Shown in pieces: positions 123 to 18,534 of a stretch of 64,000 nucleotides of DNA. The notes under the pieces were generated by a model, which saw only the letters and a program-made list of their open reading frames with translations, ran no database searches and was not told where the DNA came from. Source of the DNA: a virus (Duplodnaviria > Caudoviricetes); IMG/VR virus record IMGVR_UViG_3300042307_000844. One strand, written 5' to 3'. The number at the start of each line of letters is the position of its first letter. Positions within the stretch are counted from its first letter, which is position 1. A program made the position numbers and the translations under genes.

Positions 123-204
123 AATGTGTTTTAGTGTTCGTTTCGTGTTCGTTACTTAGAGATCTTTAGCTTGCTTACTTCATGTCCTGAGTGTGATCTA
201 GTTT

Positions 205-471
205 TTAATAAAGGTTCTCACTGTAGAGCGTTCCATCAGAAGATACTTTTCGTCTGATCTGACCTTCTTTTTCAGCTATTTTCCAAGCATCCTCACGACT
301 TAAAAATACCCCCATTTGATCCACAAATCCTTGTTCCTTGACTTTCAAATGATATTTTTCCCCATAAGCTTTAAACATAATCTTACGCATTTCAGGGGAA
401 AAGTGTCGGATACCGACCACAACATCCCCATCATCCATTAGCATGGCAGCAGCAACAATTAATCTTTCCAT
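205..471 (-). CDS. Hypothetical phage protein
   Basis: 88-aa ORF; motif 11 nt upstream; stop codon lies inside the next motif copy. Confidence 0.8.
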   Translation of the reverse strand: MERLIVAAAMLMDDGDVVVGIRHFSPEMRKIMFKAYGEKYHLKVKEQGFVDQMGVFLSREDAWKIAEKEGQIRRKVSSDGTLYSENLY

Positions 472-492
472 GGTATCAGTGTAGTCTAGTTT

Positions 493-927
493 TTAAGAGA
501 AGTCCTCTTTCTTACCATATGCAGTGAATGTATCACCATCCGCGTTAAAATCAATCCTACCATCCTCATAACCCAAATGATAGAATTCGTTGGAAAGCTC
601 TTCCATGACATCACGGATCGCTTCCACGTTGTCCTCATTGCAAATTCCATTGTTATACAATTCGTTTAATGCCGTTTCAATTTTCATATTATTATACTTT
701 GGTTGTTCATCATCGATTTTCAATACCAGTTCATCACCTTCCACGGTAATCATTCCCCGATCCATCATCTCGTTGATCGTCTGGTTGAAGATAACAGTTC
801 CATCCCATTTGTCAAGCACATCCTTGGCTTGGTGGGGATAAGACATGATAACGCCCACTGTCCCTATCTCAAGGAGAGATAGGCGACCATCAAACAATTC
901 AATCGGTAATATTATTTCGTTATTCAT
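493..927 (-). CDS. Hypothetical phage protein
   Basis: 144-aa acidic ORF in a tightly packed minus-strand run. Confidence 0.75.
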   Translation of the reverse strand: MNNEIILPIELFDGRLSLLEIGTVGVIMSYPHQAKDVLDKWDGTVIFNQTINEMMDRGMITVEGDELVLKIDDEQPKYNNMKIETALNELYNNGICNEDNVEAIRDVMEELSNEFYHLGYEDGRIDFNADGDTFTAYGKKEDFS

Positions 928-1159
928 CGTCGCTTACCTTAACACACGCTTCCCAAAAGTCATCTAAATTCTCATTATCACTTATCAAGTGTAAGGAACA
1001 TTTACCCTGATATTCCACGGGAACGGAACACAACACCAAATCCTCCCTACCACATAGCATGATGGATTTTTCCATATTCTCATGGATTTCAGGATCATAA
1101 TCAAGGATACATGTTCCCCCAGCTTCCAATGGCAGCATAATCAATTGGTAATCCATCAA
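920..1159 (-). CDS. Hypothetical protein
   Basis: 79-aa ORF with short overlaps to neighbours. Confidence 0.7.
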   Translation of the reverse strand: MMDYQLIMLPLEAGGTCILDYDPEIHENMEKSIMLCGREDLVLCSVPVEYQGKCSLHLISDNENLDDFWEACVKVSDDE

Positions 1160-1410
1160 TCAAATATTTCAGCATCGAAGTCCACATCCTTACAGGTGCA
1201 ATAACATCTACCAGTATGCCCCTTATTACGAATACAATAATATACCATATATGGAATTCTACCACCGCATATTTTAGTAATTTTTGGAACCCATGATAAA
1301 GCATCATCCCCAATCATGATGTGATCATCATCCTCAAAAGCTGCCAAAGCTTCCACTAAGTATTTCTTTTTCATATTAATGTAATTTAAGCCATGATGCC
1401 AATGTGTCAA
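1156..1410 (-). CDS. Hypothetical protein, Cys-rich C-terminus
   Basis: 84-aa ORF, ATGA overlap with the downstream gene. Confidence 0.6.
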   Translation of the reverse strand: MTHWHHGLNYINMKKKYLVEALAAFEDDDHIMIGDDALSWVPKITKICGGRIPYMVYYCIRNKGHTGRCYCTCKDVDFDAEIFD

Positions 1411-1687
1411 TGGTAAATATTCCCATCACGTTGAACTGCCTACATGCTTGATAGAATGCCGCTTGCTTAAATTCTGAATCGGGAGCGTAAATGAATGCCA
1501 CTTCATTTGGAGTCACCCGAACATAGAACTCCGGTAGCTTTTTGGATACCCCCCACCCCACCAGATTGTTCGCCAATCGCTGGATGGCATCATTGGAAGA
1601 TGGTAATACGCCTGAAAATACAAAACCAAGGCTTTCACCATGGTAGTATTTGAGTTCGTGGAGAGGTAATGTTTTTTCTTCAACCAT
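1376..1687 (-). CDS. Hypothetical protein
   Basis: 103-aa ORF coupled to the upstream stop. Confidence 0.7.
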   Translation of the reverse strand: MVEEKTLPLHELKYYHGESLGFVFSGVLPSSNDAIQRLANNLVGWGVSKKLPEFYVRVTPNEVAFIYAPDSEFKQAAFYQACRQFNVMGIFTIDTLASWLKLH

Positions 1688-2007
1688 TATTGAATGATTT
1701 CAATGCTATCAAATTCCACCATCTCCCTTGGCAAATCCTTGAAATATTTCACGGCACGTTTGGAGAGATTTTCATATCCTTCCACAATTTGTTTGATTGT
1801 GTTTGGAGCGGTGGGAAGATCATATTCCCTTTCCTTTGCACGGGAAATGGCTCGGTTCAATCCTTCATGCCTATCCCAACGATCAATCGGATTGCAGATG
1901 GAATAGCCATAGCAAACCTCGTTCTTATCCCGCAGAGCTACGACCACCCCACGGGGTTGTCCCTTCTTGTTTCTAATGTATCTAATTAGTGTTTGTGCTG
2001 TATTCAT
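1687..2007 (-). CDS. Hypothetical phage protein
   Basis: 106-aa ORF; motif 13 nt upstream. Confidence 0.8.
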   Translation of the reverse strand: MNTAQTLIRYIRNKKGQPRGVVVALRDKNEVCYGYSICNPIDRWDRHEGLNRAISRAKEREYDLPTAPNTIKQIVEGYENLSKRAVKYFKDLPREMVEFDSIEIIQ

Positions 2008-2023
2008 ATTTTTCTATTGTATT

Positions 2024-2461
2024 CTAGTTTTTAACGGTGATCATTTCCGGCCAATATGGTTGAACATTACCATTTTTTCCGTTCGCCACTGTAAGGTGAA
2101 GTCCGCGATAGCCTTCGCTATCCACAATGTTAAGCTCCTTTTTCATTTTGTCAAGTTCTTCAGAATAGACTTTCAGATAAAACATGATGAATCCCTTGGT
2201 GTATCCCCCGCGAACAAGGTATGGATCATATTCAAATTCAATTTCCTCCCCATCATAGTATTCAGCTTTCTTCCAATCCACATCTTTGTGGAATTTTTCG
2301 TTTGCAACTGTTATATGGGCATCATGCAAGGGCTTCTGTAGATTGATCCAATATTCGCGCTGGATAAAAAAATGATAATAATCAAGAATATCCGATCCCG
2401 TCTCCACAACAATGCGGGACTTGGATGAGTCAACCCTGATGGTTCCTTTCGCTTTCAACAT
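2024..2461 (-). CDS. 2H phosphoesterase superfamily protein (T4 57B/Acb1- or LigT-like)
   Basis: Two HxT motifs, AHITV (H49) and LHLTV (H122), in 145 aa. Confidence 0.7.
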   Translation of the reverse strand: MLKAKGTIRVDSSKSRIVVETGSDILDYYHFFIQREYWINLQKPLHDAHITVANEKFHKDVDWKKAEYYDGEEIEFEYDPYLVRGGYTKGFIMFYLKVYSEELDKMKKELNIVDSEGYRGLHLTVANGKNGNVQPYWPEMITVKN

Positions 2462-2482
2462 GGAACAACCATACGCTAGTTT

Positions 2483-2956
2483 TTATCCTTTGGTTTTCCA
2501 GTCGATCACCATCTTCTCATATGGCTCAACTTCGTAGATGCTATCCCATTCAATCTCCGTGCCGTTATAGGACTGATAATAACCGGGAATGTAGTAATGT
2601 CCCATTAATGTCCCATTCTTCTCAACTTTGAAGACGCAGTGCCAATGTTCTCCTTCACCTTCCCCACCCCCTTGTTGATTCACTACTTGCACCACCCAAT
2701 CGCCAAATTGAATTTTTTCCATACTATCATAAAAGGAATATTCATCAATACCCCATTTCGATTGATATGCTGTTGGATTTTTGAGATATTTGTCAGCACT
2801 ATCCTTTGGTTCCAAGAACCTGAGAACGTTTCTGATATTCTTGGGATTGAAATTCTCCAGAATATCGGGTAGCTTTTCGCTTTCCAATTCCTTCGCTTTT
2901 TCCAATTCTTGCTGCATACGAGCAATTTCCGCTTCTATTTCTTTGCTTGTTTTCAT
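2483..2956 (-). CDS. Hypothetical phage protein
   Basis: 157-aa ORF with N-terminal coiled coil. Confidence 0.8.
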   Translation of the reverse strand: MKTSKEIEAEIARMQQELEKAKELESEKLPDILENFNPKNIRNVLRFLEPKDSADKYLKNPTAYQSKWGIDEYSFYDSMEKIQFGDWVVQVVNQQGGGEGEGEHWHCVFKVEKNGTLMGHYYIPGYYQSYNGTEIEWDSIYEVEPYEKMVIDWKTKG

Positions 2957-3732
2957 ATTAGTCTTAATTTGTTTTGTTGTTCTGCTTGTTTAAATTTATC
3001 AATGTAAGAGAAATCTCTATCGTTTCTCAGGACATCAATGTTTGTCAGGATGAAGAACTTGAACCAACCACTACTCATGGTTGTGGCCAATTTCTTCAAA
3101 GATTTTTGATACGCTTCAATTTTCGAGAATTTGAAATCATGGGGGATTAGATACCTTTCCAGAGCAGTCACCCACACTTCCTCTTTCACAAGATTTAATT
3201 TATCATCATGGGAGAGTTTGTCAAATCCTTTTTTGGAGCATGATACCCCCTCATATACCAAGGATTCGTATAAGGGTTTGTCGTAGATGGCTACGCATTC
3301 GTGAATCGAATCGTGATTATACTTTCTCTTCACTGCATCTTCAAAGAATGTTTGGGAATCCTTACCTTTCAGGGAAGCCCATTGTTTGCCATGTTTCAAT
3401 ATCCATGCCTTCACCAACTTCTTATATAACTTTTCATTGACCACACATCCTTTTGATTTGAGAAAGCATACATCGGATACGTGTTTTTCCCAGAATATGT
3501 CCCATCCCAAATGGGATAATTTTAGCGTATATAGATGATCCTTGTCAAGAAACCGATCATCTTGATTATTATCTAAAAAATATTGATATTCTGGTATCCA
3601 GAGATATTCCACTTCTTTCGTGCTATTACCTTGTTCAGACATGTAATCCATGTCCTTTGGTTCCCTTGAAAAATCGGGAAACCAATGGCGGATAGCGTGA
3701 CTACCTATGATCAGTGATTTCATTCGATCCAT
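2953..3732 (-). CDS. Nucleotidyltransferase-fold-like phage protein
   Basis: N-terminal IIGSHA...REPKDMDY fits the GS...DxD Pol-beta NTase signature. Confidence 0.55.
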   Translation of the reverse strand: MDRMKSLIIGSHAIRHWFPDFSREPKDMDYMSEQGNSTKEVEYLWIPEYQYFLDNNQDDRFLDKDHLYTLKLSHLGWDIFWEKHVSDVCFLKSKGCVVNEKLYKKLVKAWILKHGKQWASLKGKDSQTFFEDAVKRKYNHDSIHECVAIYDKPLYESLVYEGVSCSKKGFDKLSHDDKLNLVKEEVWVTALERYLIPHDFKFSKIEAYQKSLKKLATTMSSGWFKFFILTNIDVLRNDRDFSYIDKFKQAEQQNKLRLI

Positions 3733-4205
3733 TCCGGTTTATTGCGTTTCCAAGCATGTAAGTGTGCCTTATCATGCTTGTAGAAGAGTCTATACTTCCC
3801 CACCTCATCAACATCGTTCCACTCTGGAAGTGTCCTACAAATGGCATCCTCCGCGATAGCAAGGGCGAATGGTGTCTGAGCTTCCGAATCAAAACCAAGT
3901 CTCCAGCTATTTGATTCTACCCAATCCAATACATCCTCTGACTTATGACGTTTGTGATAACGTGCTGTATATTCGGATGCGATGGCATATGCGTGTTCAA
4001 GTCCCCATAGGAAATTGTCATATGATGTGCGTAGCCAAATCGTCGTTGGGTGTTTGGGATGTGTTTGTTGGTATGGAGCATCAATTCCTTGTAAATGAAA
4101 ATTTGTGCAGAACATTTGGCAGCTTTCAAGAAGCATCTTCATGTGCCGATCCACCAACCATTTGGCAGATTGAGCGGGACAATAATCGATGGAGAATTGA
4201 TTCAT
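3720..4205 (-). CDS. Pyrimidine dimer DNA glycosylase (endonuclease V)-family protein
   Basis: DRHMKMLLESCQM...THPKHPTTIW...EYTARYHKRH pattern typical of the phage Pyr_excise-like family. Confidence 0.65.
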   Translation of the reverse strand: MNQFSIDYCPAQSAKWLVDRHMKMLLESCQMFCTNFHLQGIDAPYQQTHPKHPTTIWLRTSYDNFLWGLEHAYAIASEYTARYHKRHKSEDVLDWVESNSWRLGFDSEAQTPFALAIAEDAICRTLPEWNDVDEVGKYRLFYKHDKAHLHAWKRNKPEWIE

Positions 4206-4226
4206 GCGCTGATCGTATTCTAGTTT

Positions 4227-4688
4227 TTAACAGTCGTTTTTCAAATCCAACCACGCAGCATAATCACCCTCTTTCAAGAGTTCCATTTCCTTACGTTTGA
4301 GTTCAATATCAGCCCGAATACTCTCAGGTGTTTTACGATCATCCCTATCCGTATTGATCCAAAAGATTTGCCAATCCTTATCATCCGAATTTTCCAAAAC
4401 ACTTTTCAAATACTTCTCGGCATCCTTTTCATCTCCATACCTCATGCTTTTAATGCGAACATAAGGTTCATCGAATTCCAACTGATTGTCCACATCGTTC
4501 CAATATCGGGCGATGAAATAGTATCTACCCTTCAGACCGATTTTCTGTTCAGTGTGGACATAATAAGTCCATTCATCCCCATTCTCTTTCTTTGCCATAG
4601 CTAGAGCCTTGCGCTTTGTGTCAGTGATGTAGTTTCCTGCGATGGCACTTCCGCCGCTACAAGTCATGCCTATTGTGTATTGTTTCAT
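4227..4688 (-). CDS. Hypothetical protein
   Basis: 153-aa ORF; TAA stop lies within a motif copy. Confidence 0.8.
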   Translation of the reverse strand: MKQYTIGMTCSGGSAIAGNYITDTKRKALAMAKKENGDEWTYYVHTEQKIGLKGRYYFIARYWNDVDNQLEFDEPYVRIKSMRYGDEKDAEKYLKSVLENSDDKDWQIFWINTDRDDRKTPESIRADIELKRKEMELLKEGDYAAWLDLKNDC

Positions 4689-4689
4689 T

Positions 4690-4866
4690 TTATTGTTCTA
4701 CAGTATGATATTTTACTTCTTTTGTTTGTAGAAATCTGATATAGTTTTCGGCTTCATGTTTGCTGCGCCATTGCATACTGTTCGTCCACCACCAAAGAAT
4801 TTTTTCTTGAACTGTAAAGGTGCTGACACCATTGCCATTAATTGTTTCTTGTATTCTATATTTCAT
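4690..4866 (-). CDS. Small hypothetical protein (58 aa), paralog of 4863-5099
   Basis: Manual translation MKYRIQETINGNGVSTFTVQEKILWWWTNSMQWRSKHEAENYIRFLQTKEVKYHTVEQ; fills the gap exactly; below ORF-track cutoff. Confidence 0.75.
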   Translation of the reverse strand: MKYRIQETINGNGVSTFTVQEKILWWWTNSMQWRSKHEAENYIRFLQTKEVKYHTVEQ

Positions 4867-5099
4867 ATTTCAAATTCTTTAATAGTCGTTTCTCCAGTTG
4901 GAATGGAAAATTTATTGATTATTTCAACACCTCTTTCAGCGGCTTCCAAAGAATCATATCCTGAATTAAGATAACCACAAAATCTGTGTACTCCATTGGT
5001 AGCATTCTCCCAATATTCCCACCATAAAAATTTGGTTAGGTATTCTATATGATACCATGTAGCAAACCCATTTCTTTTTTCAACTATTCTAAATTTCAT
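4863..5099 (-). CDS. Small hypothetical protein
   Basis: 78-aa ORF MKFRIVEK...FLWW. Confidence 0.75.
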   Translation of the reverse strand: MKFRIVEKRNGFATWYHIEYLTKFLWWEYWENATNGVHRFCGYLNSGYDSLEAAERGVEIINKFSIPTGETTIKEFEI

Positions 5100-5310
5100 A
5101 TTTGTCCATCAATTTATCATATTCGTTCTTATAGTCAAGAATCATTTCTCTTGCACTTGCAGAACAATCCATACTGTTCATCCAAAGAATCACAGCTTCC
5201 GCCACGCTATAACATCCTGAGCCGAAAAACATTCGTATCATTTCTTGATGATGTTCTGGCAGCAACTCAAATCTTTCGTCAAAAATGGCATTGTGATATT
5301 CTCTTTTCAT
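5089..5310 (-). CDS. Hypothetical protein
   Basis: 73-aa ORF with coupled overlaps. Confidence 0.7.
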   Translation of the reverse strand: MKREYHNAIFDERFELLPEHHQEMIRMFFGSGCYSVAEAVILWMNSMDCSASAREMILDYKNEYDKLMDKYEI

Positions 5311-5570
5311 AGAAGCGGTGCTGTGATCGGTGTTGGGGTTTCTGGAAATTTTGCCTTCATATTATGGACTTTTTTATAATCAACCAATCCGATTGAATCG
5401 TGATATTCGATCATCTGAACAACATAGGCATAAGCGTTATACAGCCCCTCGTCTTTCTTTCTAAGTTCGTCTTCTCTCAAAAGATCATTCATTCTCAAAT
5501 TAGCTTTGTCACGATGATACAAAGCCATGTAATAGATGTTTTTGAGTAATTGTTTTGGGGGCGTTTTCAT
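5307..5570 (-). CDS. Hypothetical protein
   Basis: 87-aa ORF with coupled overlaps. Confidence 0.7.
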   Translation of the reverse strand: MKTPPKQLLKNIYYMALYHRDKANLRMNDLLREDELRKKDEGLYNAYAYVVQMIEYHDSIGLVDYKKVHNMKAKFPETPTPITAPLL

Positions 5571-5851
5571 ACTTCAAATTCGTAATAAGTTGTCACCTGA
5601 GTATCCCCACATTGATCGCAAGTCTCTGAATAGTGGGTATCCTCAACGGGAAGCAATTGCACCAAATCATTCACCCCGATTTCCCCATCATCAAACATGC
5701 GCTTGATTTCCACAAACAGATCATCGTGGAACTTTTCACGCTGTTCTTTGGTTAGCTCGTATCGCTTGTCTTCGCATGAGTAAGCAACACCATTGACTTC
5801 CAGATGTCCCCCTGCCGTGCATCCATCGGATATGTTGATTTTGTATTTCAT
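5567..5851 (-). CDS. Hypothetical protein with C-terminal CxxC
   Basis: 94-aa ORF, CDQC motif. Confidence 0.75.
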   Translation of the reverse strand: MKYKINISDGCTAGGHLEVNGVAYSCEDKRYELTKEQREKFHDDLFVEIKRMFDDGEIGVNDLVQLLPVEDTHYSETCDQCGDTQVTTYYEFEV

Positions 5852-6030
5852 TTCAATAGTTCCTTTGCTTTTTCTTCCAATGCTTCCCTACAATAATTAT
5901 ACGTCCCATCGGATCGCTTTCCAGTAGCAACAAGACCCACAAAATTCTCAAGTTCAAGGACTCTCAAGTGTTCATCAATCCACTTCTCGTAGAAGTATTC
6001 TCTAGGATTTGCTTCCATGTCCACGCTCAT
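5848..6030 (-). CDS. Hypothetical protein (start may be 6018)
   Basis: 60-aa ORF directly downstream of a motif copy. Confidence 0.7.
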   Translation of the reverse strand: MSVDMEANPREYFYEKWIDEHLRVLELENFVGLVATGKRSDGTYNYCREALEEKAKELLK

Positions 6031-6052
6031 TGTATTCTAGTTTTTAAAGAGA

Positions 6053-6087
6053 ATACCCCATCCCGACAAACAAACGGGATGGGGTAT
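6053..6087 (-). terminator. Intrinsic terminator-like hairpin
   Basis: Perfect 13-bp inverted repeat ATACCCCATCCCG / CGGGATGGGGTAT followed by a T-rich run on the minus strand, just after the 6094-6339 stop. Confidence 0.75.
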
Positions 6088-6093
6088 CATGTC

Positions 6094-6339
6094 TTAGAAC
6101 GATGTCACACCGTTCATCCGCATCTCCGTTGCCATATCACGGACATTGATAGGCACTTCCATGGCATGTCGGGAATTGGTTTTAATTACAGCCGTGGCTC
6201 CACCTCCCAAAATATGAAAGGAACCGTCCTTACGCTGGATCATGTTTACCGTAAAAAGTTTGGTACGTTTCCTTTGGTCTGGACTTCTAAGCCATTTTCT
6301 ATCTCTACGCATTGTTCGTGTATCATTTGTTTTCTTCAT
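6094..6339 (-). CDS. Small basic hypothetical protein
   Basis: 81-aa ORF followed by a terminator hairpin. Confidence 0.7.
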   Translation of the reverse strand: MKKTNDTRTMRRDRKWLRSPDQRKRTKLFTVNMIQRKDGSFHILGGGATAVIKTNSRHAMEVPINVRDMATEMRMNGVTSF

Positions 6340-6345
6340 ATGTTT

Positions 6346-6540
6346 TTATTGTTTTTCGTTTTGGAGATACGAATATTCAATTTCCCATTCCTTTCGGAGA
6401 TTGGCTATCCGTTTCTCAAGCTTCTCAAGATTAGCACCACATTCCTCAATGTCAAGTTCGGTATCGAAAGTATTCAACTTGTGGAATGCAGTGTTCATCC
6501 ATTTTTTAGTTTTTTCAACCTTTTCAATTAATTCTTGCAT
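6346..6540 (-). CDS. Small coiled-coil hypothetical protein
   Basis: Start reassigned to MQELIEKV at 6540, immediately after the upstream stop; the longer track ORF overlaps the phosphoesterase. Confidence 0.65.
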   Translation of the reverse strand: MQELIEKVEKTKKWMNTAFHKLNTFDTELDIEECGANLEKLEKRIANLRKEWEIEYSYLQNEKQ

Positions 6541-6541
6541 A

Positions 6542-7189
6542 TCAGTGATGATCAAATTTTGATGTTTCCTTCTTAGCCATGATTTCCACGACTTCCTCCA
6601 GCTTGAAGAAAGCGGTTCCGTTGTATCTCTTGGCATTCTCCACCCCCACATCAAGCATCTTGCCAAAACCATTCCCATCAGGATTGGCTTGCTGGAGATT
6701 GCCATGGGAATGTCCAATAAGGGCATCTCTACCCTTGTTTTGATCCGGCCAGATCAAGGGAGCCATGTGTCGGCAATAGAATCGTTCCCGATCAATATCC
6801 AGAAGAAATTCGTATCCCATCAGAGTGATGTTGGGAGTGATCTTCATGGGATACAATTGGCAATTCTCAAATCCCTTTGGTAATTGTTTTTGATAGAGTT
6901 GTTGCACACCACTATTATGATTCCCAAAAATCATGAGGGTTTCACATGGGAATGTCATCATGAATTCCTGAATCCTTTCAGGACCACATGACAGACCGAC
7001 ATCTCCAAAATGAACGAGCAAGCTATCGGGATGGATGCCATCAATCTGTTCCTGTATCCAATTATTATGATCCTCTGGATTTGAAAATCCCCTTGGGACA
7101 TATAGGAAATCTTTTCCATGCCCGAAATGGCTGTCACCCATCAGGAGAATTTCCTTATAGTCCTTGCGTTGTTTCTTAATCTTAATCAT
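6542..7189 (-). CDS. Calcineurin-like metallophosphoesterase
   Basis: GDSHFGH, HFGDVG, FGNHN and GHSHG motifs. Confidence 0.85.
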   Translation of the reverse strand: MIKIKKQRKDYKEILLMGDSHFGHGKDFLYVPRGFSNPEDHNNWIQEQIDGIHPDSLLVHFGDVGLSCGPERIQEFMMTFPCETLMIFGNHNSGVQQLYQKQLPKGFENCQLYPMKITPNITLMGYEFLLDIDRERFYCRHMAPLIWPDQNKGRDALIGHSHGNLQQANPDGNGFGKMLDVGVENAKRYNGTAFFKLEEVVEIMAKKETSKFDHH

Positions 7190-7400
7190 GTTTTTAAAAG
7201 GTGATCACTTCGGCACGTTGTCGCGCCAACTTTTCAGCATCCGAGTTTGAGGATTATGGAATTTATGCCTGTCATTGCTGACTTTTTCCGAACACCCGAA
7301 GGCTCCATTTCTCGATCCCGCCAGTCTCCTTACCAAATTAATGGTAGAGGGAGGTTCTGGCAATGTTGTGATGCTGCCGAAGCGATCATTGGAAAATTAT

Positions 7401-11567: not shown

Positions 11568-11571
11568 AATT

Positions 11572-12264
11572 TTAATGGTTGTTGATGATCATCTTCACGA
11601 CCCAGCCCCCCTGAAATGTGCCGGGGATTGGAAGTAAAGCGTCACCTGTAACGTCTGAAACCTCCGATAAAGTCTGATACCATTTCTCATTCTTTGGCAT
11701 CTCCTTGGGATGGACTAGGAAGTGATAACCACCTCGCGTCTCCACAACGTCCACAGCTTTGCCACAGACATCGGTGAAGCGATCCAGAACGTTCTGGCTC
11801 TTCTCATCCACATCAAACGTGACAACCCTTTTCTTGGAAGCAGTCCTTTGGATGGTGGATAGAATCTCCTGATGGGGATTGCTGTTCTTACCTTGGCATT
11901 GCACCACTTTCATAAGATCAATCGCACCTTGGATGGTGGCTTTAAACATGTCTCGCGGATTTGGGCTACAGTATAATACCAAACTTTCTTGAGGCACCAC
12001 GAATTCCTCCCCACCTTTACCTTTCATCGTGTAAGAACCGATGGGGCATTCCAATTGTTTGATCTTGGATACCATTCTTTCCTTGGTTGTCGTTAGGCGT
12101 TTCAAGTGGTTTTTATCCGCTTTGATCCAAGGATGTTGTTCTGATGAACAGTATTTTTTTCTTGTAAACGCTGCCAAGTAGTATATCTCATGCTCTTCCA
12201 AGTCTGGTAGCCAATCGATAAATCTTTCAAGCTCATCTTGATCCATTAAAAATTTGTAGTTCAT
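11572..12264 (-). CDS. Archaeo-eukaryotic primase (AEP)-like domain protein
   Basis: VTFDVD (hhhDhD) followed by ETRGGYH (motif II His). Confidence 0.5.
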   Translation of the reverse strand: MNYKFLMDQDELERFIDWLPDLEEHEIYYLAAFTRKKYCSSEQHPWIKADKNHLKRLTTTKERMVSKIKQLECPIGSYTMKGKGGEEFVVPQESLVLYCSPNPRDMFKATIQGAIDLMKVVQCQGKNSNPHQEILSTIQRTASKKRVVTFDVDEKSQNVLDRFTDVCGKAVDVVETRGGYHFLVHPKEMPKNEKWYQTLSEVSDVTGDALLPIPGTFQGGWVVKMIINNH

Positions 12265-12929
12265 AGATTAATTTCCTCCGTTTGATTTGATTGCCAGATG
12301 AAGTTCTTCCATGTGGGAACCCTATGTTTATTCATTACAATATGATACCAATATTCATCTCCCCTCAAGGTGATTTTCACCAGCTTACCCGAAAATTGAT
12401 TATTGACAAGCCATTCGTAATTGTAAATTCGATACATATATATCAGCAGATACTTCTCAAGCAGCTTTTGAAGCATGAATACCCGCTTTCCGAATTTCTC
12501 TTGATACCGATCCAACTCATAAAGCTTTTGCCCCAAATCGTGATTGATCTTTTCCTTGGGTTCCTCAATCCAATTGAAAGAATATCCCCACCCATAACGA
12601 TCATCCATCTTGGAATAATCCCAAGCCCACCATTTGTTCTGATCACCCGTGTATTCATGGGTTGGTTTGCAATGAAGAACAATCTTATTATTCACCGCTC
12701 TTGCCTTGATCTCCTCCAGAAACGGAAACCACACCCGCTCATCCCATTCCTTATCTTGTCGTTGGGCAGTCTGATAGGCTCTTGCCATGTCATTTAGACC
12801 ATCATGAAGACTATTTTCATCAACTCTCCAGTTACGGATTAGAAATCTTCCGCGCAATCCATCAAGATAGGTGGATTCGTAATTATCGTAAATATATTGC
12901 CAATTGTCTGTTTTAAGCGTTTCGTGCAT
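12261..12929 (-). CDS. Hypothetical protein
   Basis: 222-aa ORF; motif 11 nt upstream. Confidence 0.8.
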   Translation of the reverse strand: MHETLKTDNWQYIYDNYESTYLDGLRGRFLIRNWRVDENSLHDGLNDMARAYQTAQRQDKEWDERVWFPFLEEIKARAVNNKIVLHCKPTHEYTGDQNKWWAWDYSKMDDRYGWGYSFNWIEEPKEKINHDLGQKLYELDRYQEKFGKRVFMLQKLLEKYLLIYMYRIYNYEWLVNNQFSGKLVKITLRGDEYWYHIVMNKHRVPTWKNFIWQSNQTEEINL

Positions 12930-12950
12930 GGATGTAGTGTGGTCTAGTTT

Positions 12951-13118
12951 TTATTTCATTGCAAGGCAATCACCATTCGTGTTGTAGTAATCCCAAGCAT
13001 ATTCATAAGTGTCCTTGTGGGGACAATCAAAACAAGTGTAGTCCTCTGGCTTGTAATTCGGCGGTTCCCACTCCATGTCGGATGGGTGATCTTCAAATGT
13101 TGGGATTTTCCATTTCAT
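12951..13118 (-). CDS. Small Cys-containing phage protein (55 aa)
   Basis: Manual translation MKWKIPTFEDHPSDMEWEPPNYKPEDYTCFDCPHKDTYEYAWDYYNTNGDCLAMK; TAA stop lies in a motif copy. Confidence 0.7.
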   Translation of the reverse strand: MKWKIPTFEDHPSDMEWEPPNYKPEDYTCFDCPHKDTYEYAWDYYNTNGDCLAMK

Positions 13119-13491
13119 AATTCAAAATCTCCTCATCTTCCACTTGCTCCATCTTATACAGACTGTTTGCAGTTGTGATATAGGTTACTCCCTCGTTCTC
13201 TTCCAGCTTCATCACTTCCGATGTGTGCATGGTTCCCCGCTTCACCACACCATTGCGATTCCAACGGTCAATGATGATCATCTTTCCGACTTCGATTTCT
13301 CCGATAAGCTCTCCCACGATCCAGTAGTCCACGGGAGGACTCTTTCCTTCGTGAAACTGTCCCCAAGTGCCACGCTCTTGGTCAATACGGTATTCCTCAA
13401 CGGTGGAAGATTGTGTAGCCTCACTGTTGGGGTTGATATTTATTTTAGTTAATTTTATCATAATTTCATTTTTTAAAGTATGTTTTTCCAT
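13093..13491 (-). CDS. Hypothetical protein
   Basis: 132-aa ORF. Confidence 0.75.
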   Translation of the reverse strand: MEKHTLKNEIMIKLTKININPNSEATQSSTVEEYRIDQERGTWGQFHEGKSPPVDYWIVGELIGEIEVGKMIIIDRWNRNGVVKRGTMHTSEVMKLEENEGVTYITTANSLYKMEQVEDEEILNYEMENPNI

Positions 13492-13834
13492 CCCCTCTCT
13501 TAATCACATCCACCCGCACCTTGGTAATCCCTTTTTTCAGGAAACCAAGCTTACTGGCAGCAGCTTGGGAAAGGTCAACGATCCTTCCCCGGATGTATGG
13601 CCCGCGATTTGTGACGCGAACCATCACATCCTTACCATTGGATAGGTTGGTAATCTTGGCAATCGTGCCAAATGGCAGAGTCTTATGTGCCATCGTGTAT
13701 GAATCATCCCTCAGGGGGATTCCGCTTGCTGTATGCGTCCCCCCATTCGTGCGAATTGAGTAATGGGAAGCGATTCCATATTCTTGAGAGAACCCAAGGT
13801 TAATCGTCAGTAGTATAATTAGTATTGTTTTCAT
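13466..13834 (-). CDS. rlpA: RlpA-family lytic transglycosylase (DPBB domain) with signal peptide
   Basis: GIASHY...TASG...AHKTLPFGT...RVTNRGPYIRGRIVDLSQAAA; hydrophobic N-terminus. Confidence 0.9.
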   Translation of the reverse strand: MKTILIILLTINLGFSQEYGIASHYSIRTNGGTHTASGIPLRDDSYTMAHKTLPFGTIAKITNLSNGKDVMVRVTNRGPYIRGRIVDLSQAAASKLGFLKKGITKVRVDVIKRGDGKTYFKK

Positions 13835-13848
13835 AATTTGATTGTATT

Positions 13849-14070
13849 CTAGTTTTTATTGGGATGGTTTGCAAAATATTCCGCAATGCTATCATCCCAA
13901 GGCTTGTTACGTTTATCCAACTCATCCGCTATGAATCGTAATTGATGAGATGATAAGTATCCGTTTAATTCTTTGGGAAAATAATAAATATATCCATCAT
14001 CATTGAAGACGAAATCCCCCGCATCATCAATTATCTTGATTAATTTGTTTTTGTAACTTTCAATATGCAT
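13849..14070 (-). CDS. Hypothetical protein
   Basis: Start reassigned to MHIESY at 14070 to avoid a large overlap; ends KN* at a motif. Confidence 0.65.
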   Translation of the reverse strand: MHIESYKNKLIKIIDDAGDFVFNDDGYIYYFPKELNGYLSSHQLRFIADELDKRNKPWDDSIAEYFANHPNKN

Positions 14071-14329
14071 AATGTTTTTCAGGGTCAAATCCATATACTT
14101 CACACAAGTCCCGAAAAATCGGCTCATATTCCCAATATCTGCGATGAATTCCATCATAATATCGCTTGAATCTGTCGTGTCGAATGCCTTCCTCGTAAGG
14201 ATTGATCTTCAAATCATACTCTCCAAATTTATTTTTTCTAAAAGCATTCTCAGCTAGAATAGCGTCTTCGGCTTGCCGTCTTTTGGATGGCTTTTTGATG
14301 TATTGAAGGTTGGTCATAATGTTTTCCAT
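14060..14329 (-). CDS. Hypothetical protein
   Basis: 89-aa ORF. Confidence 0.7.
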   Translation of the reverse strand: MENIMTNLQYIKKPSKRRQAEDAILAENAFRKNKFGEYDLKINPYEEGIRHDRFKRYYDGIHRRYWEYEPIFRDLCEVYGFDPEKHYAY

Positions 14330-14526
14330 TTCTTTCTAGCAGCTTGAAGACACCCAATGATCCTTTCCAGTGTCTCCAAATCCTTAATTTCCCCATGATC
14401 GGGCAATCCATGGATCATACAACCGATTCTTTCAGATGGGAATTCGCAAAGAGTGACTTCAAAGTGAATCAGGGCATTATCATAGTATGTCTTGAAGACG
14501 ATCTCTTCGTCAATTTTGTGTTTCAT
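14314..14526 (-). CDS. Hypothetical protein
   Basis: In-frame ATG at 14526 is 11 nt from the motif (track start 14532). Confidence 0.7.
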   Translation of the reverse strand: MKHKIDEEIVFKTYYDNALIHFEVTLCEFPSERIGCMIHGLPDHGEIKDLETLERIIGCLQAARKKWKTL

Positions 14527-14547
14527 ATTCATATTGTATTCTAGTTT

Positions 14548-15216
14548 TTAACGATGTTCTACAATCTCAAGAATATCTAAAATCCTGCTATCACAACCAT
14601 TGTGAGATGCGAAGTGTGACTGGTGGAAGTGACCACACCAATGCTTTTTAGCTCCACAAAGTTCTATTAGCTTGGCAATGTCCTCCCGTTCCTTCACACA
14701 TTCTTCCCAAAGTGTGGGGTCTTTCTCACACCATCCAGCGATCCCTTGCTTCGAAAAATCCCCGATCCAATTTGGAGCAGAATGCGTTATTAAAACATCC
14801 ACCTTATCCACCAATTCAGGCTTCAAAACAAACGCTTCATCCTCCCACCATGACATATTGGGGACACGAATACGACGATCAATGCTCACAGCACCCCCAA
14901 CAAATAGGAACTTCTCCCCATTGAATGTCTGGTAGGAATAATCACGTATCAATTCAAAATGAGAATGATTAACAGTGCCAAGAAAGTATTTGGGATCATC
15001 GTGGTTGCCCCTCGCTCCTTTGAATTGAATGTTACGCTTCTTGAAACGATTGTTTAGAAGCTCAATCTCCCTATGTTGCTTATCGGGAGATTTAAACCCA
15101 ACGCCTAAATCGCCCACATGTAGGAGAACACAATCTTCTATTTTAAGGCTTTCTAACTTACGAAACAGAGCATCCCAATCTCCATGGCTGTCCCCAATAA
15201 TACACACACTTGTCAT
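14548..15216 (-). CDS. Calcineurin-like metallophosphoesterase
   Basis: GDSHG, VGDLG, RGNHD, THSAP and GHFH motifs. Confidence 0.85.
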   Translation of the reverse strand: MTSVCIIGDSHGDWDALFRKLESLKIEDCVLLHVGDLGVGFKSPDKQHREIELLNNRFKKRNIQFKGARGNHDDPKYFLGTVNHSHFELIRDYSYQTFNGEKFLFVGGAVSIDRRIRVPNMSWWEDEAFVLKPELVDKVDVLITHSAPNWIGDFSKQGIAGWCEKDPTLWEECVKEREDIAKLIELCGAKKHWCGHFHQSHFASHNGCDSRILDILEIVEHR

Positions 15217-15872
15217 CAGTAATCATCCTTTCCAATCCAGAATTGCTTCATTCCAAGATAATCTTCTTTTCCCCAAGGTGTGTAGAAAATCTCCTTATCT
15301 CTTCCCATCTTTTTCAATTGTTTCAAGGTGGGTAGAACATTAACCGTGAAATATTCCTCCCGACCACTATCATTGTTATAATATGGAATGAGTTCAATTT
15401 TTGAAATTGATTTGATCTGCTTATGTTTGGAGAAGTATTCATGAAGTTTTTTCAGATTATAATTTTTTGATCTGATATGGGCATCAATATAATCCCCCAC
15501 AACAACCACGGGAATAGGCTCCAGATCAACTGTCCAAAACGTGTGATCGTAACTACATGCCAACACGATTTTGGAGATATCGATGTCCTCTGGATTTTCC
15601 GGCAATTCCTCCCCTTTCCACCATTTTTCATCCTCTTTTTTATTCCAACCCCAGTATGGATTTGTTTCTTCCAAATACTCCAAACTCGAATTATAAACAA
15701 CATCAAAGTGTAATGTGCTATTATGTTTTGATTTTACGGCTTTACCGCCATATTCCAATGTTCTGGATGTTTGCTTATCGTTTACAACAACTTCCTTTAA
15801 AACAACATTGGGATGTAACCTATAGGTCGTGGTTTCCGTAACCACGGTTGTTTTCTTTTTCGTAACTTTCAT
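15216..15872 (-). CDS. Hypothetical protein
   Basis: 218-aa ORF; motif 11 nt upstream. Confidence 0.8.
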   Translation of the reverse strand: MKVTKKKTTVVTETTTYRLHPNVVLKEVVVNDKQTSRTLEYGGKAVKSKHNSTLHFDVVYNSSLEYLEETNPYWGWNKKEDEKWWKGEELPENPEDIDISKIVLACSYDHTFWTVDLEPIPVVVVGDYIDAHIRSKNYNLKKLHEYFSKHKQIKSISKIELIPYYNNDSGREEYFTVNVLPTLKQLKKMGRDKEIFYTPWGKEDYLGMKQFWIGKDDY

Positions 15873-15886
15873 GTCCCTATTGTATT

Positions 15887-16555
15887 CTAGTTTTTAACAG
15901 GCGTGAACCCCAATTCCTTGGCTTTTGCCTTGGATAAAGTCCGATAGCATCCACGTTTATTGACACAGAAAACACCAGCATTGCCCGTCACTTCACAGGT
16001 TTGGGATGCTTGGTATTCCGCCAAACGAATCATCCCCTTGATGATATCATCTCCCCCACTGGTGTATATACAAAGGCTATACTTCTGCTTCACCTGTTCG
16101 ATAGTAACTGGCTCAGGATATCGCGTTCTCTGATATTTTGTGAAATCAAACCGCATTTTACGAAGCAGCTTTCGGATTCGATTTTCCCATTTCCACCAAG
16201 AGGTTGCTTGAATTTTTTTCTGCATCTCAGGAAAAATGATTCGTGGATTATCACTTGGGTATAGACGTTGAGTTGGCTTGAGAACCTTGCTGACAAATTT
16301 TGCTGCTTCCCAAGTCTTACCATTCCACCAGAATTTGAAACGCTTTATCCGCGTGTCTTCCAGATAATGGATTTTTGTTTTGGAGTATTGATTGATCGCT
16401 CCAAAGAGATTGAGAATGATCTTCTCCCATCCCTTGGGGACATCTGATATGCTCATTGAACCTTCTCCCCACTCAACGAAAGTAAAATCCATTGCCAAAT
16501 CTTGAATGAATTTTGAGGATTGCTCAAAGTCTTTTTTCCATTGTTCTCCTGTCAT
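15887..16555 (-). CDS. Hypothetical protein
   Basis: 222-aa ORF ending KN* at a motif. Confidence 0.8.
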   Translation of the reverse strand: MTGEQWKKDFEQSSKFIQDLAMDFTFVEWGEGSMSISDVPKGWEKIILNLFGAINQYSKTKIHYLEDTRIKRFKFWWNGKTWEAAKFVSKVLKPTQRLYPSDNPRIIFPEMQKKIQATSWWKWENRIRKLLRKMRFDFTKYQRTRYPEPVTIEQVKQKYSLCIYTSGGDDIIKGMIRLAEYQASQTCEVTGNAGVFCVNKRGCYRTLSKAKAKELGFTPVKN

Positions 16556-16556
16556 A

Positions 16557-17072
16557 TTATTTTAATTTCAAGCTGTTTTTAATATTCTCTACGTGCCGAT
16601 CAATCACGCTTTCTGGTACTCCATGGGAGTTGGTTCCGTTGTGGCGTTTCTCCACCACTAGAGAGAACACCATGATACCACGCCTTTCCGCTTCGTCAAT
16701 ATAAAATTGAAATTCGGAAATTTTGGTGTTTGTGTTAGCTACCACAATAGTATCAAAAAGTTCTGGATTATCCAGAGCATACAGGAATTTTTCACGACAC
16801 CGTTCATGAGCTTTTCCCAGAAGATCAGGATTGAAATTGTATTTCCCCAATTCATCATAGAAGTAATCATCAGCACAGCAGATTGCAAGTTCCCCGCCGA
16901 AGAGCATTGCTACAGAGCTTTTGCCGCATCCAGAGCTTCCACGAAGGATCACCAAATTTGGTTTTCTAATCTCAACATCACATCCCAAGTCCTTGAAATC
17001 TTGAATTATTTCTTCGTCACTCATAGCAGCTAATTGTTTATCAAAATCCTTTTTAAATTGTTCTATTGTCAT
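16557..17072 (-). CDS. P-loop kinase (AAA_33 / polynucleotide kinase-like)
   Basis: Walker A GSSGCGKS, CADDYF, VVANTN and HGVP motifs. Confidence 0.8.
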   Translation of the reverse strand: MTIEQFKKDFDKQLAAMSDEEIIQDFKDLGCDVEIRKPNLVILRGSSGCGKSSVAMLFGGELAICCADDYFYDELGKYNFNPDLLGKAHERCREKFLYALDNPELFDTIVVANTNTKISEFQFYIDEAERRGIMVFSLVVEKRHNGTNSHGVPESVIDRHVENIKNSLKLK

Positions 17073-17093
17073 AATTTTAAATATTTTTCCAGA

Positions 17094-17252
17094 TCAACCC
17101 TTGCGGTATTTTGCGATGAGTTCCTTTTCCTTCGCAGTTCGCTCAACTTTGAACTTCTCCCCTCTTCGGAGTATTATTTTATTTTATCCATGACAATCCC
17201 ATTCCTTAGCGAGACGGTAGATGTCTGGTTCTACTGATGTTTTGTATGACAT
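17094..17252 (-). pseudogene. Small ORF interrupted by an in-frame TAA (or a 22-aa peptide)
   Basis: ATG 11 nt from a motif; MSYKTSVEPDIYRLAKEWDCHG*NKIILRRGEKFKVERTAKEKELIAKYRKG*; TAA at 17184-17186. Confidence 0.45.
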
Positions 17253-17266
17253 GTTTTGATTGTGTT

Positions 17267-17989
17267 CTAGTTTTTAAGAATTTCCTTCTTTCTAGCTCCT
17301 TTGGCAATCATCACATAATGATTATCCTCCCGCTCAATCCTTGCTTGGGAATATCCAACCAATTCGGGATATTTCCGTTCCACGTATTCCCCAACCACTT
17401 GCCACACCTTCATATAGTCCTTGGTTTCATGGGCTTTATCCAATTTATTCACGATAGTCTTCCCCTTGATGGGGAATCTCTTTTCAGCGGCAAATCCCTC
17501 AATTACTGGTAAAGGAACTTTGGTGATTTGTAGGGGATCACGATAATTCACACCATTACCTTCGTATCCGTCGTTGTTCTTTAAAGAAACATATTGACGC
17601 AGGGTGGAGTAGATTTCGTATGCCAGTGTCCCCCCACCTTCAATCATTTTTTTATTGCATACCCCAAAATTACCCCGTAGATGACCACGCTTCAAACGCT
17701 CTTTCTCTTCCCAAGACACTTCCGTATTGCGTTCCCCATTCTCCCCATAGGTGCATCCATATTGGTCGTAATAACCCCCATGTCCATCGTATTTCAATTG
17801 GGGAGGTTCGGGATACAGAATACCCCTTACAAATGTTTCAATAGATTCCGATTCTTTCCAAGACAAGCCCACATCCCGAAACGCCTCATCAATGGCGATC
17901 CTGATCTGTCCTGCTCGCAATCTGGAATACACTTCCAAGGCAGTCATCATCACCCGAAGGTGTTCGTCAGTAAATTCAATTTTAGTCAT
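17267..17989 (-). CDS. Hypothetical protein
   Basis: 240-aa ORF flanked by motifs at both ends; ends KN*. Confidence 0.8.
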   Translation of the reverse strand: MTKIEFTDEHLRVMMTALEVYSRLRAGQIRIAIDEAFRDVGLSWKESESIETFVRGILYPEPPQLKYDGHGGYYDQYGCTYGENGERNTEVSWEEKERLKRGHLRGNFGVCNKKMIEGGGTLAYEIYSTLRQYVSLKNNDGYEGNGVNYRDPLQITKVPLPVIEGFAAEKRFPIKGKTIVNKLDKAHETKDYMKVWQVVGEYVERKYPELVGYSQARIEREDNHYVMIAKGARKKEILKN

Positions 17990-18010
17990 GGAACGATTGT
18001 AGTCTAGTTT

Positions 18011-18331
18011 TTAACCCATCCCATGTAGGGGGGATTTAGCAATCCAATTTTTAAAATCCCCCTCATAGTGCCATGCTCTTTTTGTGGATGCATGGTCTGG
18101 TAATTCATCAATTTTTTCAGTTGAATATGACGAGGGCCATCCATTGGATGGTTTTGATACCCCGTTGATAATACCGAACCCCCCAACATGAAATTCCACA
18201 ACGTCCCCGATTTTATATTTCGGGTCGCCTTTTGGTTGCATTGCACACCATCGAATGTCTGAATAACTCTTACGATGATCCTCCCGTGAGTTATAATCCC
18301 ACTTCTGTAATTCATTCATGTCTTCTTGCAT
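18011..18331 (-). CDS. Hypothetical protein
   Basis: 106-aa ORF; motif 11 nt upstream. Confidence 0.7.
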   Translation of the reverse strand: MQEDMNELQKWDYNSREDHRKSYSDIRWCAMQPKGDPKYKIGDVVEFHVGGFGIINGVSKPSNGWPSSYSTEKIDELPDHASTKRAWHYEGDFKNWIAKSPLHGMG

Positions 18332-18345
18332 GTCCCCAATATAGT

Positions 18346-18534
18346 CTAGTTTTTAAGAACGTAATCCATGATCTCCATCTCGAAAGATTTTCGATCCAAA
18401 ACACTCCCCTCCTTCACATAAATAAAGGATTCTGGATATTCCGCATCCAACCCTGCCCACACCTCAATCACATCGTCCTCCTTCATCAGAAAGGTATAGC
18501 CCCCAATCACAGCTTCGTATTTCTCACTCATCAC
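18346..18534 (-). CDS. Hypothetical protein
   Basis: 62-aa ORF ending KN* at a motif. Confidence 0.7.
   Translation of the reverse strand: MMSEKYEAVIGGYTFLMKEDDVIEVWAGLDAEYPESFIYVKEGSVLDRKSFEMEIMDYVLKN

Follow-up and report, generated by a model that had tools for sequence, protein, structure and literature searches.

Background

Why should so many unrelated genes of a single phage end on the same short word of DNA? The question is raised by one end of the window, by which we mean the whole 64,000-nucleotide stretch that was analysed, taken from a 177.6-kb IMG/VR record (estimated to be 87% complete) of a lake-water relative of phage T4. The record encodes a T4-type tail sheath and terminase, and its nearest named relatives are found among the T4-like cyanophages; a megablast search of the region against named phages gave no match, and a literature search on the motif word found nothing relevant. 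An earlier note on this DNA had remarked that the motif supplies the stop codon of the upstream gene in two frames, and had proposed either that genes were captured against a fixed stop-carrying element, in the manner of integron attC sites, or that compaction had pushed promoters into gene ends.

Results

A repeated box that ends the gene before it

Between positions 198 and 18,355 there are 16 copies, all on one strand, of T-TAAAAACTAG-AAT-ACAAT-N6-ATG (hereafter, the box). The core, which is TAAAAACTAG in gene sense on the minus strand and CTAGTTTTTA as the window reads, is exact in 15 of these copies, and the variant TGAAAACTAG occurs once. When one mismatch is allowed, the whole window contains 17 matches against 5.2 expected, a number reached by none of 100 shuffles; the full record, which extends beyond the window, has about 41 boxes. 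They sit among small genes, most of them without a family match. Genes were called crudely (ATG starts only, at least 35 aa). Related IMG/VR contigs, which were selected for containing the box, provided 373 distinct box sites, of which 333 follow an ORF of 40 aa or longer. The boxes of the window are the following.

198-207, minus strand: core TAAAAACTAG; its TAA (205-207) stops gene 205-471, and the next ATG lies 14 nt downstream
486-495, minus strand: core; TAA (493-495) stops gene 493-927, whose box-less homologue in locus L048 ends at the identical residue
2024-2033, minus strand: core; TAG (2024-2026) stops gene 2024-2461, tail ITVKN
2476-2485, minus strand: core, with the variant -10 part CGTATGGT; TAA (2483-2485) stops gene 2483-2956
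4220-4229, minus strand: core; TAA (4227-4229) stops gene 4227-4688
6037-6046, minus strand: core, not a stop; follows an intrinsic-terminator-like hairpin at 6055-6080 (z = -3.59)
7592-7601, minus strand: core, not a stop; the stop of gene 7607-7825 is a TAA of its own, two codons earlier
10726-10735, minus strand: core; TAG stops ORF 10726-10983, tail YKLKN; the box-less homologue in L025 ends YKFKQ at the same position
11199-11208, minus strand: variant TGAAAACTAG; TAG stops gene 11199-11567, tail IEN; lies within a 173-nt duplication shared with box 10726
12944-12953, minus strand: core; TAA (12951-12953) stops gene 12951-13118
13849-13858, minus strand: core; TAG stops gene 13849-14157, tail HPNKN; bounds a box-to-box indel relative to L013 on the right
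14541-14550, minus strand: core; TAA (14548-14550) stops metallophosphoesterase gene 14548-15216; left end of the same indel
15887-15896, minus strand: core; TAG stops gene 15887-16555, tail PVKN
17267-17276, minus strand: core; TAG stops gene 17267-17989, tail EILKN; the final 3-7 residues are different in box-less homologues
18004-18013, minus strand: core; TAA (18011-18013) stops the single-gene unit 18011-18331
18346-18355, minus strand: core, first of the cluster; TAG stops gene 18346-18534, tail VLKN

Fourteen of these 16 boxes terminate the upstream gene, seven on the box TAA and seven by way of AAA-AAC-TAG, which gives the protein a KN or EN tail. The TAA is the end of the minus-strand ORFs at 205, 493, 2483, 4227, 12951, 14548 and 18011, and the TAG, preceded by AAA or GAA and then AAC, ends those at 2024, 10726, 11199, 13849, 15887, 17267 and 18346; only the boxes at 6037 and 7592 are not used as stops. 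The ORF table and a frame analysis of each site thus confirm the two-frame stop at every coordinate that the earlier note had listed. The 14 box-terminated proteins are unrelated to one another, none of them giving a BLASTP match to another below E=0.03. In the relatives, the upstream stop lies inside the box at about 71% of the 333 sites, some 137 upstream ORFs ending on the TAA, 99 on the stop at +7, and only about 14 in the third frame.

It could be expected that genes with their own stop shortly before a box would be those arriving in the third frame, but this is not borne out (18, 11 and 13 genes in the three frames), so that genes which simply continue until the box ends them do not account for all of the strong frame bias. 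The idea of a module that stops all three frames was likewise rejected: the third frame is closed inside the box at 74 of 155 sites (48%), and stop-making dinucleotides after T18 have a frequency of 0.387, against 0.374 one position later. Third-frame closure therefore matches the local dinucleotide composition and gives no sign of selection for stopping all frames.

This bears on the suggestion that the stops themselves are selected, the box being a translational insulator whose TAA or TAG acts on a read-through polycistronic RNA and makes ribosomes terminate 14-21 nt before the next AUG, either for re-initiation without a Shine-Dalgarno (SD) sequence or so that the start site stays free of ribosomes. 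Unused stops are indeed kept. An unused +7 stop is still TAG or TAA in 127 of 130 boxes (position 10 being a purine), position 1 is always the T preceding the A-run, and TGAAAACTAG in the window still has its frame-1 stop. SD sequences are moreover hardly used in this genome, which makes a coupling of termination and re-initiation plausible. However, a sequence-specific promoter element would conserve the same positions, G-to-A is simply the commonest transition, and an insulator fits badly with a third frame left to composition; we thus consider this explanation very unlikely. At box position 10, selection for a stop and promoter constraint cannot be separated.

Promoter-like geometry

The geometry was scored over 197 box sites having the ATG at positions 25-27. 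Outside the anchor word, conservation is 72% for T0, 82% for A11, 81% for T13, 100% for A14, 86% for A16, 98% for T18 and 98% for C or T at position 24, whereas upstream of position 0 there is none (information content below 0.15 bits). A14 and T18 belong to a -10-like TAnnnT; when the A of the ATG (A25) is counted as +1, A falls at -11 and T at -7, with a pyrimidine at -1 and a purine at +1. This pyrimidine contrasts with the non-box genes, only 9% of which have C at -1. The gap from TAG to ATG is 14 nt in 190 of 303 exact boxes. A -10 element that stops 6-7 nt short of the start codon, a pyrimidine at -1 and a purine at +1, here the A of ATG, together give the geometry of a leaderless-mRNA promoter, from which we infer both a promoter function and the position of +1. 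A role for the downstream gene is also favoured by box positions 1-3 and 8-10, whose conservation does not depend on use by the upstream gene, and by the intact state of the boxes that follow a terminator or an earlier stop.

A generic sigma-70 scan detected no consistent or common -35 at the boxes and was uninformative, and the upstream element T-A5-CTAG corresponds to neither a known -35 nor a known extended -10. At -17 to -4, an SD-like word is absent from each of 29 box genes, but most other genes lack one too (18 of 187 non-box genes have it), so that in this SD-poor genome the comparison between box and non-box genes is uninformative and the absence of SD is no argument for leaderless messages.

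C-termini of box-less homologues

Of the 27 families of the TAA class, 18 have box-less homologues whose last residue is the same; in 16 of the 17 families of the TAG class the two ends lie no more than two residues apart, the native tails KQ, KA, SE, IE or EK being replaced by KN, or ITIK followed by the stop becoming ITIKN. The last case is that of gene 2024-2461: nine box-less homologues end ITIK plus TAA, which indicates that the K is native and only the N was added. The proteins were therefore neither truncated nor captured, and at most their last two residues were overwritten to K-N. The earlier note had asked whether C-termini are truncated or extended exactly at the motif, and had named motif-free homologues ending at the same position with the same KN residues as a refutation. 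The alignments reveal no such truncation or extension; the same end position is found.

Genome packing and the late-promoter word

In the regions that carry boxes, the non-box junctions have a median gap of 1 nt, with 46 of 72 at 5 nt or less and 34 overlapping, and the box junctions are at the minimum gap possible, 14 or 21 nt. A second, independent word behaves in the same manner: TAAATA-N5-ATG, in which the word of T4 late promoters has its final A at -6, precedes 44 genes and in 12 cases also gives the upstream gene its TAA. A gp55-like late sigma factor is encoded in the record (phrog_234, E=5e-24). The short gaps, the ends of the box-less homologues and the TAAATA words that donate a TAA all favour the second proposal of the earlier note, that of promoters pushed into gene ends, and we think that the stops supplied by the box are mostly a by-product of extreme genome packing and not of integron-like gene capture.

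Discussion

A probable promoter printed over gene ends

We consider it likely that the box is a regulatory element of the downstream gene, most probably the phage-specific promoter of a leaderless message, and that the KN end is its overprint. This builds on the observed positions, frames, conservation pattern, homologue ends and indels. The promoter would consist of T-A5-CTAG at -24 to -15, the TAnnnT -10 at -12 to -7, six further bases ending in a pyrimidine at -1, and the A of ATG as +1. Because a leaderless promoter lies entirely upstream of the start codon and there is almost no intergenic spacer, such a box must overlap or abut the end of the preceding gene; and because it holds TAA in one frame and TAG in another, an upstream gene arriving in either frame stops there. 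A stop on TAA would leave the protein unchanged, and a stop on TAG would overwrite its last two codons to Lys-Asn, so that the shared KN end can be read as a two-residue overprint of the promoter with no sign of capture. A gene that met the box in the third frame would read across the -10 element and gain at least five residues; such junctions are rare. As a side effect, some 40 nearly identical boxes would offer 18-36 nt of homology, across which whole units may occasionally be deleted or inserted, presumably by homologous recombination; since the stop lies inside the repeat, box-to-box exchanges would spare both flanking genes.

Capture or exchange of genes

The overall picture does resemble an array of integron cassettes: small unrelated genes are numerous and all point the same way, and behind each stands a copy of one short stop-carrying element. 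The box would then be an attC-type site with built-in stops against which a recombinase inserted genes. Nevertheless, searches with PF00589 (Phage_integrase) and PF00239 (Resolvase) gave no match in the 177.6-kb record, and thus no tyrosine or serine recombinase was found where the earlier note had proposed to look for one. Neither an attC-like nor any other consistent structure was found in 15 folded box contexts: fold z-scores are between -1.7 and +1.7 in 13 of them, no better than shuffles, most minimum-free-energy folds leave the box unpaired, and it contains no palindrome other than CTAG. The two contexts that beat shuffles are that of box 6037, which alone has a minus-strand terminator-like site (6055-6080) directly before it, and that of box 2476, the only box enclosed in a significant hairpin (z = -3.26). 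Furthermore, an attC lies 3' of its own cassette ORF, whereas the box stands at a fixed distance of 14 nt from the downstream ATG and, when partners change, remains attached to the downstream gene in 424 of 528 cases (80%) and to the upstream gene in 194 of 325 (60%). This partner-change test replaced a family-level test of the steadiness of box status on the 5' and 3' sides, which ended in a tie (21 of 56 and 21 of 58 mixed families) owing to conserved synteny. With the matching end positions of box-less homologues in addition, capture against a fixed attC-like element, the first proposal of the earlier note, appears scarcely credible.

A more serious rival is that the box is chiefly a recombination module, so that units of a box and its gene(s) are exchanged among phages by homologous recombination, possibly via excised circles, with the stops kept for the safety of the upstream frame. 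This is how the promoter-early stem-loop (PeSL) cassettes of the T4-type phages RB49/phi1, PST/T4 and nt-1/KVP40 behave (Arbiol et al. 2010, PMC2839356; Comeau et al. 2014, PMC4122927), and the figure legends of the former study place an upstream stop codon at the 5' edge of the element (PMC2839356). The window contains one clean case, a 692-nt unit (13859-14550) bounded by boxes: the junction in L013 joins the left flank of box 14541 to the right flank of box 13849, with the switch falling within the 18-nt box that they share. Boxes that precede unrelated genes have identity tracts of 27-36 nt in common, and when a downstream partner is replaced, a box heads the newcomer 60% of the time, the background being about 23%. 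Over all loci, 25 of 122 indels run from box to box against 17.3 +/- 3.3 expected under locus-aware random placement (P ~0.02); a simple binomial null (p = 7e-5) was dropped as too lenient, because the boxes are clustered. This excess is modest, however, and its events are not independent; 53 of the 122 indels have no box at either end, the downstream neighbour is conserved at 13 of 43 box junctions and 21 of 94 non-box junctions, and so no less often at boxes (Fisher p = 0.39), and gene 14314-14532, headed by a box here, is box-less at another position in L042, L087 and L090. Gene turnover is thus not concentrated at boxes, box-to-box indels being modestly over-represented, and we regard a primarily recombinational role as improbable. 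The gain and loss of motif-bounded units foreseen by the earlier note does occur, but it fits homologous exchange between repeated promoters and not site-specific capture. There is also a small chance that the element was selected for a dual use, as leaderless promoter and as frame-safe joint, which would give lake T4-like phages a cassette system that needs no integrase; thanks to its TAA and TAG, promoter-plus-gene units could then be swapped between phages by short-homology recombination without damage to the upstream gene, and the KN tail would be the scar of the join.

Comparison with known elements

Like a PeSL, the box is a repeated junction element, with a putative promoter, in plastic regions of small ORFans of a T4-type phage; it is AT-rich, opens with the stop of the upstream gene and closes at the downstream ATG, and indels between relatives can have two copies as bounds. 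Unlike a PeSL, it has neither an SD sequence nor a -35 hexamer, in place of which T-A5-CTAG stands at -24 to -15, and no stem-loop accompanies 14 of the 16 window copies (the hairpin at 2476 encloses the box instead of flanking it). Moreover, as the box is only about 25 nt long and abuts the ATG, its transcript should be leaderless; its stop lies inside the conserved recognition word, which fixes the KN tail; and the enrichment of breakpoints is only modest.

T4 late promoters consist of TATAAATA at -13 to -6 and are read by gp55 with gp33 and gp45. The box shares with them a short AT-rich -10-only word that contains TAA, and the late word of the present genome, TAAATA, resembles the box in having its predicted +1 on the ATG and in serving as upstream stop in the 12 cases mentioned. 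The sequence is nevertheless different, the genes concerned are small accessory ones in two clusters, and there is an extra conserved upstream element of 10 nt. T4 middle promoters combine a MotA box with a sigma-70 -10, the sigma factor being appropriated by MotA/AsiA; the box similarly has a host-type TAnnnT -10 and a phage-specific upstream word replacing the -35, except that this word is at about -20, not -30. In integrons, the stop codon of the cassette ORF is often in or near attC, and cassettes are generally promoterless. The box is comparable in being repeated at the 3' end of many unrelated ORFs and in possibly containing their stop, but it lacks the hairpin-forming imperfect palindrome (R''-L''/L'-R') and an integrase, is positioned by the downstream start, and has promoter-like features.

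Conclusion

The box would add to the PeSL junctions of T4-type phages a compact variant devoid of stem-loop, -35 and SD sequence, with the quantitative caution that most gains and losses of genes in these regions make no use of boxes. To those who annotate genes, a KN end common to several proteins or a repeated "stop motif" in such genomes would be a mark of promoters, and not of homology or gene capture. Finally, these genomes may illustrate how far packing can go: with the promoter set against the start codon, its recognition word would become at once coding sequence and the stop of the neighbouring gene, and so fix the last two residues of many unrelated proteins.

Results

The box, a promoter-like motif repeated just before start codons, reads T-TAAAAACTAG-A(A/C)TACA(A/C)T-N6-ATG in gene sense and is present in 16 copies at window 198-18355, on one strand only (minus), namely 15 exact 10-mer cores and one TGAAAACTAG variant. 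With up to one mismatch allowed, the whole window gives 17 matches for 5.2 expected, a number reached in 0 of 100 shuffles. The earlier note had placed the stop codons of upstream genes inside this motif in two frames, and all its stop coordinates are correct: ORFs end at 14 boxes, seven on the box TAA (the TAA class) and seven on the box TAG at +7 (the TAG class, with a KN or EN tail). Boxes are named below by their left coordinate.

Boxes and upstream stops in the window
205, 493, 2483, 4227, 12951, 14548, 18011, minus strand: ORF ends on the box TAA
2024, 10726, 13849, 15887, 17267, 18346, minus strand: ORF ends on the box TAG after AAA-AAC
11199, minus strand: ORF ends on the box TAG after GAA-AAC
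6037, minus strand: box not used as a stop, behind a terminator hairpin
7592, minus strand: box not used as a stop, the preceding gene having its own TAA two codons earlier

The 14 box-terminated proteins are mutually unrelated (BLASTP gave no match below E=0.03), and just one of them, a metallophosphoesterase, belongs to a Pfam family. Other IMG/VR contigs also carry the exact box 16-mer, in 97 stretches or more, and these contain 373 distinct box sites, 333 of which follow an ORF of 40 residues or longer. At these 333 sites the box TAA is the upstream stop in 107 cases (a T-A6-CTAG variant supplies the TAA in 30 more) and the stop at +7 ends the upstream ORF in 99, while read-through in the third frame occurs at only about 14.

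The window corresponds to the minus strand of positions 98719-162718 in a 177,639-bp IMG/VR virus record with genes for a tail sheath and a terminase of T4 type, the closest named relatives being T4-like cyanophages, with a sheath identity of about 36%. About 41 boxes are present in the whole record, every one oriented in gene sense; they form two clusters, at 87-94.5 kb and at 144-177.6 kb. Genes lie on the minus strand throughout window 1-18534. This genome is extremely compact: the median gap at junctions without a box in the box regions is 1 nt, with 46/72 at 5 nt or less and 34/72 overlapping, and the gaps at box junctions, 14 or 21 nt, are the minimum that the box permits.

Several observations concern individual copies. 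Gene 18011-18331 makes up a unit of its own. A 125-nt segment including box 198 (window 1-300 and, beyond the window start, genome 162421-163702) is duplicated at 99% identity 1.16 kb apart, with an array of units of period about 69 nt (83-96% identity) between both copies, and a 173-nt duplication (88% identity, window 10709-11209, minus strand) spans boxes 10726 and 11199 plus the opening codons of the gene that follows each box. Box 2476 (window 2446-2525, minus strand) has an atypical -10 part (CGTATGGT), a variant also present in two related loci, L024 and L035. It is the sole box enclosed in a significant hairpin (-9.9 kcal/mol, z = -3.26), in which the end of the upstream gene pairs with the sequence as far as the ATG, and the start of its gene may be regulated or occluded. 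Finally, boxes 14541 and 7592 have an additional ATG right behind the -10 part, in the form ATGnnnATG (window 14526-14532 and 7575-7583, minus strand); as this first ATG lies upstream of the predicted transcript start, mechanical ORF calls probably begin both genes two codons too early.

To describe the geometry of the box, we built a position profile anchored on the 10-mer alone, using the 197 sites whose ATG stands at positions 25-27. Outside the anchor, conservation is 72% for T0, 82% for A11, 81% for T13, 100% for A14, 86% for A16, 98% for T18 and 98% for C/T24, and no base is conserved upstream of position 0 in these 197 sites. If the A of ATG is counted as +1, position -11 is an A, -7 a T, -1 a pyrimidine and +1 a purine. 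An A at -11 and a T at -7 are the two signature bases of the -10 element of the sigma-70 family. C is found at -1 in just 9% of the non-box genes of the same regions. The word T-A5-CTAG occupies -24 to -15, the place of a -35 or activator box. Of 303 exact boxes, 190 have 14 nt between TAG and ATG, and most of the others 15-17 nt. From this geometry we infer a promoter whose transcript would start on the start codon itself.

Starts without a box were also surveyed in the box regions of the record (window 1-18500 and genome 163-177.6 kb). Shine-Dalgarno-like words are rare there (18/187 genes), and the frequency of upstream A peaks at -3 (0.59), -6/-5 (0.56) and -13/-12 (0.59/0.52). In Flavobacterium johnsoniae, A at these same positions is reported to favour initiation (PMC6847099), which hints weakly at a host among the Bacteroidota.

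A second promoter word of this genome behaves in the same way. In a genome scan for TAAATA before start codons, counting genes of at least 60 residues, TAAATA-N5-ATG precedes 44 genes on both strands of the record, any other spacing occurring at most 8 times.

Late promoter word and putative reader
Window 21505-21510, plus strand: TAAATA, ahead of ORF 21516-22004
Locus L106 1327-1776 = genome 61911-62360, plus strand, outside the window: gp55-like late sigma factor

In T4, the late promoter has TAAATA as its core, the last A lying at -6. Since the last A stands at -6, +1 falls on the A of ATG, so that the late genes also look leaderless. At 12 of the 44 sites the promoter TAA is the stop of the upstream gene. 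The box and TAAATA thus both adjoin the ATG and donate stops, which points to a general habit of the genome and not to a peculiarity of one motif. The 149-aa sigma factor protein (phrog_234, E=5e-24, with a weak Sigma70_r2 match) is likely to read the TAAATA promoters.

Discussion

The earlier note offered two explanations for the shared C-termini, either capture of genes against a fixed element carrying stops, as in integron attC sites, or a compaction that pushed promoters into gene ends. The homologues argue against capture, because those without a box end at the same place; the earlier note had proposed this comparison as a check, and by its own terms the outcome counts against capture. 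In the TAA class, box-less homologues stop after the identical residue, with a TAA or TGA of their own, in 18/27 families, and in the TAG class the ends of box-bearing vs box-less copies fall within two residues of each other in 16/17 families. This agreement indicates that the box neither shortens nor lengthens the proteins; it overwrites their last two residues at most. The idea that the DNA imposes the KN tail on unrelated proteins is borne out, since box-less homologues carry other tails or no N: in the family of 2024-2461, box-bearing copies end in ..ITIKN and nine box-less copies in ..ITIK followed by TAAtATG, and in other families KN stands in place of the native tails KQ, KA, SE, IE or EK. 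Compaction is supported by the homologue ends, by the 1-nt median gaps and by the TAAATA stops.

One may also ask if the stops themselves are selected. Box positions 1-3 and 8-10 show the same conservation whether the upstream gene uses them or not, and an unused +7 stop is still TAG or TAA in 127/130 boxes; this is compatible with selection for a stop, and equally with a sequence-specific promoter word. The third frame is closed inside the box at 48% of sites, in line with local composition, and therefore does not suggest a stop designed for all three frames. Upstream genes with their own stop shortly before the box are distributed over the frames as 18/11/13, and the likeliest partial explanation for the rarity of third-frame junctions is selection against a tail of at least five residues across the -10 element.

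As for recombination, a search of the 177,639-bp record for tyrosine and serine recombinases found none, and the folding of 13/15 box contexts is no different from shuffles. Synteny and indels were compared in the record and 97 related loci, on the basis of rough gene calls of our own and clusters at 50% identity. Of the distinct states at box junctions, 13/43 keep the downstream neighbour, vs 21/94 at non-box junctions (Fisher p = 0.39), a similarity which argues that boxes are not where gene turnover concentrates. The 122 distinct indels whose ends could be classified include 53 with a box at neither end and 25 with a box at both, the latter a 1.4-fold excess over the 17.3 +/- 3.3 expected under locus-aware random placement (P about 0.02). 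When partners change, the box stays with the downstream gene in 80% of comparisons, as against 60% for the upstream gene (background at junctions without a box, about 23%). In the related locus L013, the sequence passes from the left flank of box 14541 straight into the right flank of box 13849, switching within their common 18-nt box, so that the unit 13859-14550 is missing. Boxes thus appear to be occasional exchange points, most gene gain and loss in these regions not involving them.

The nearest described system is the promoter-early stem-loop cassette (PeSL) of T4-type phages, a composite junction element that begins with the upstream stop in an AT-rich stretch, ends with the ATG, and also carries a sigma-70-like -35/-10 promoter, a stem-loop and a Shine-Dalgarno sequence; it mediates the shuffling of modules, and mini-circles have been found by inverse PCR (PMC2839356, PMC4122927). 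The box shares its setting and the embedded upstream stop, and may to a modest extent share indels bounded by the element. Unlike PeSL, however, it has no -35, stem-loop or Shine-Dalgarno sequence, and is compressed to about 25 nt with a leaderless geometry. The box is therefore a variant of the PeSL kind, not a strict member, and it is not an attC analogue. What survives of the cassette idea is a possible, modest PeSL-like role in unit exchange (the excess of box-to-box indels and the L013 event), without attC-like capture.

Conclusion

The stop supplied by the motif and the KN tail are most likely a by-product of a putative leaderless-promoter architecture in a very compact genome, and this underlying promoter architecture is more notable than the stop and KN phenomenon itself.
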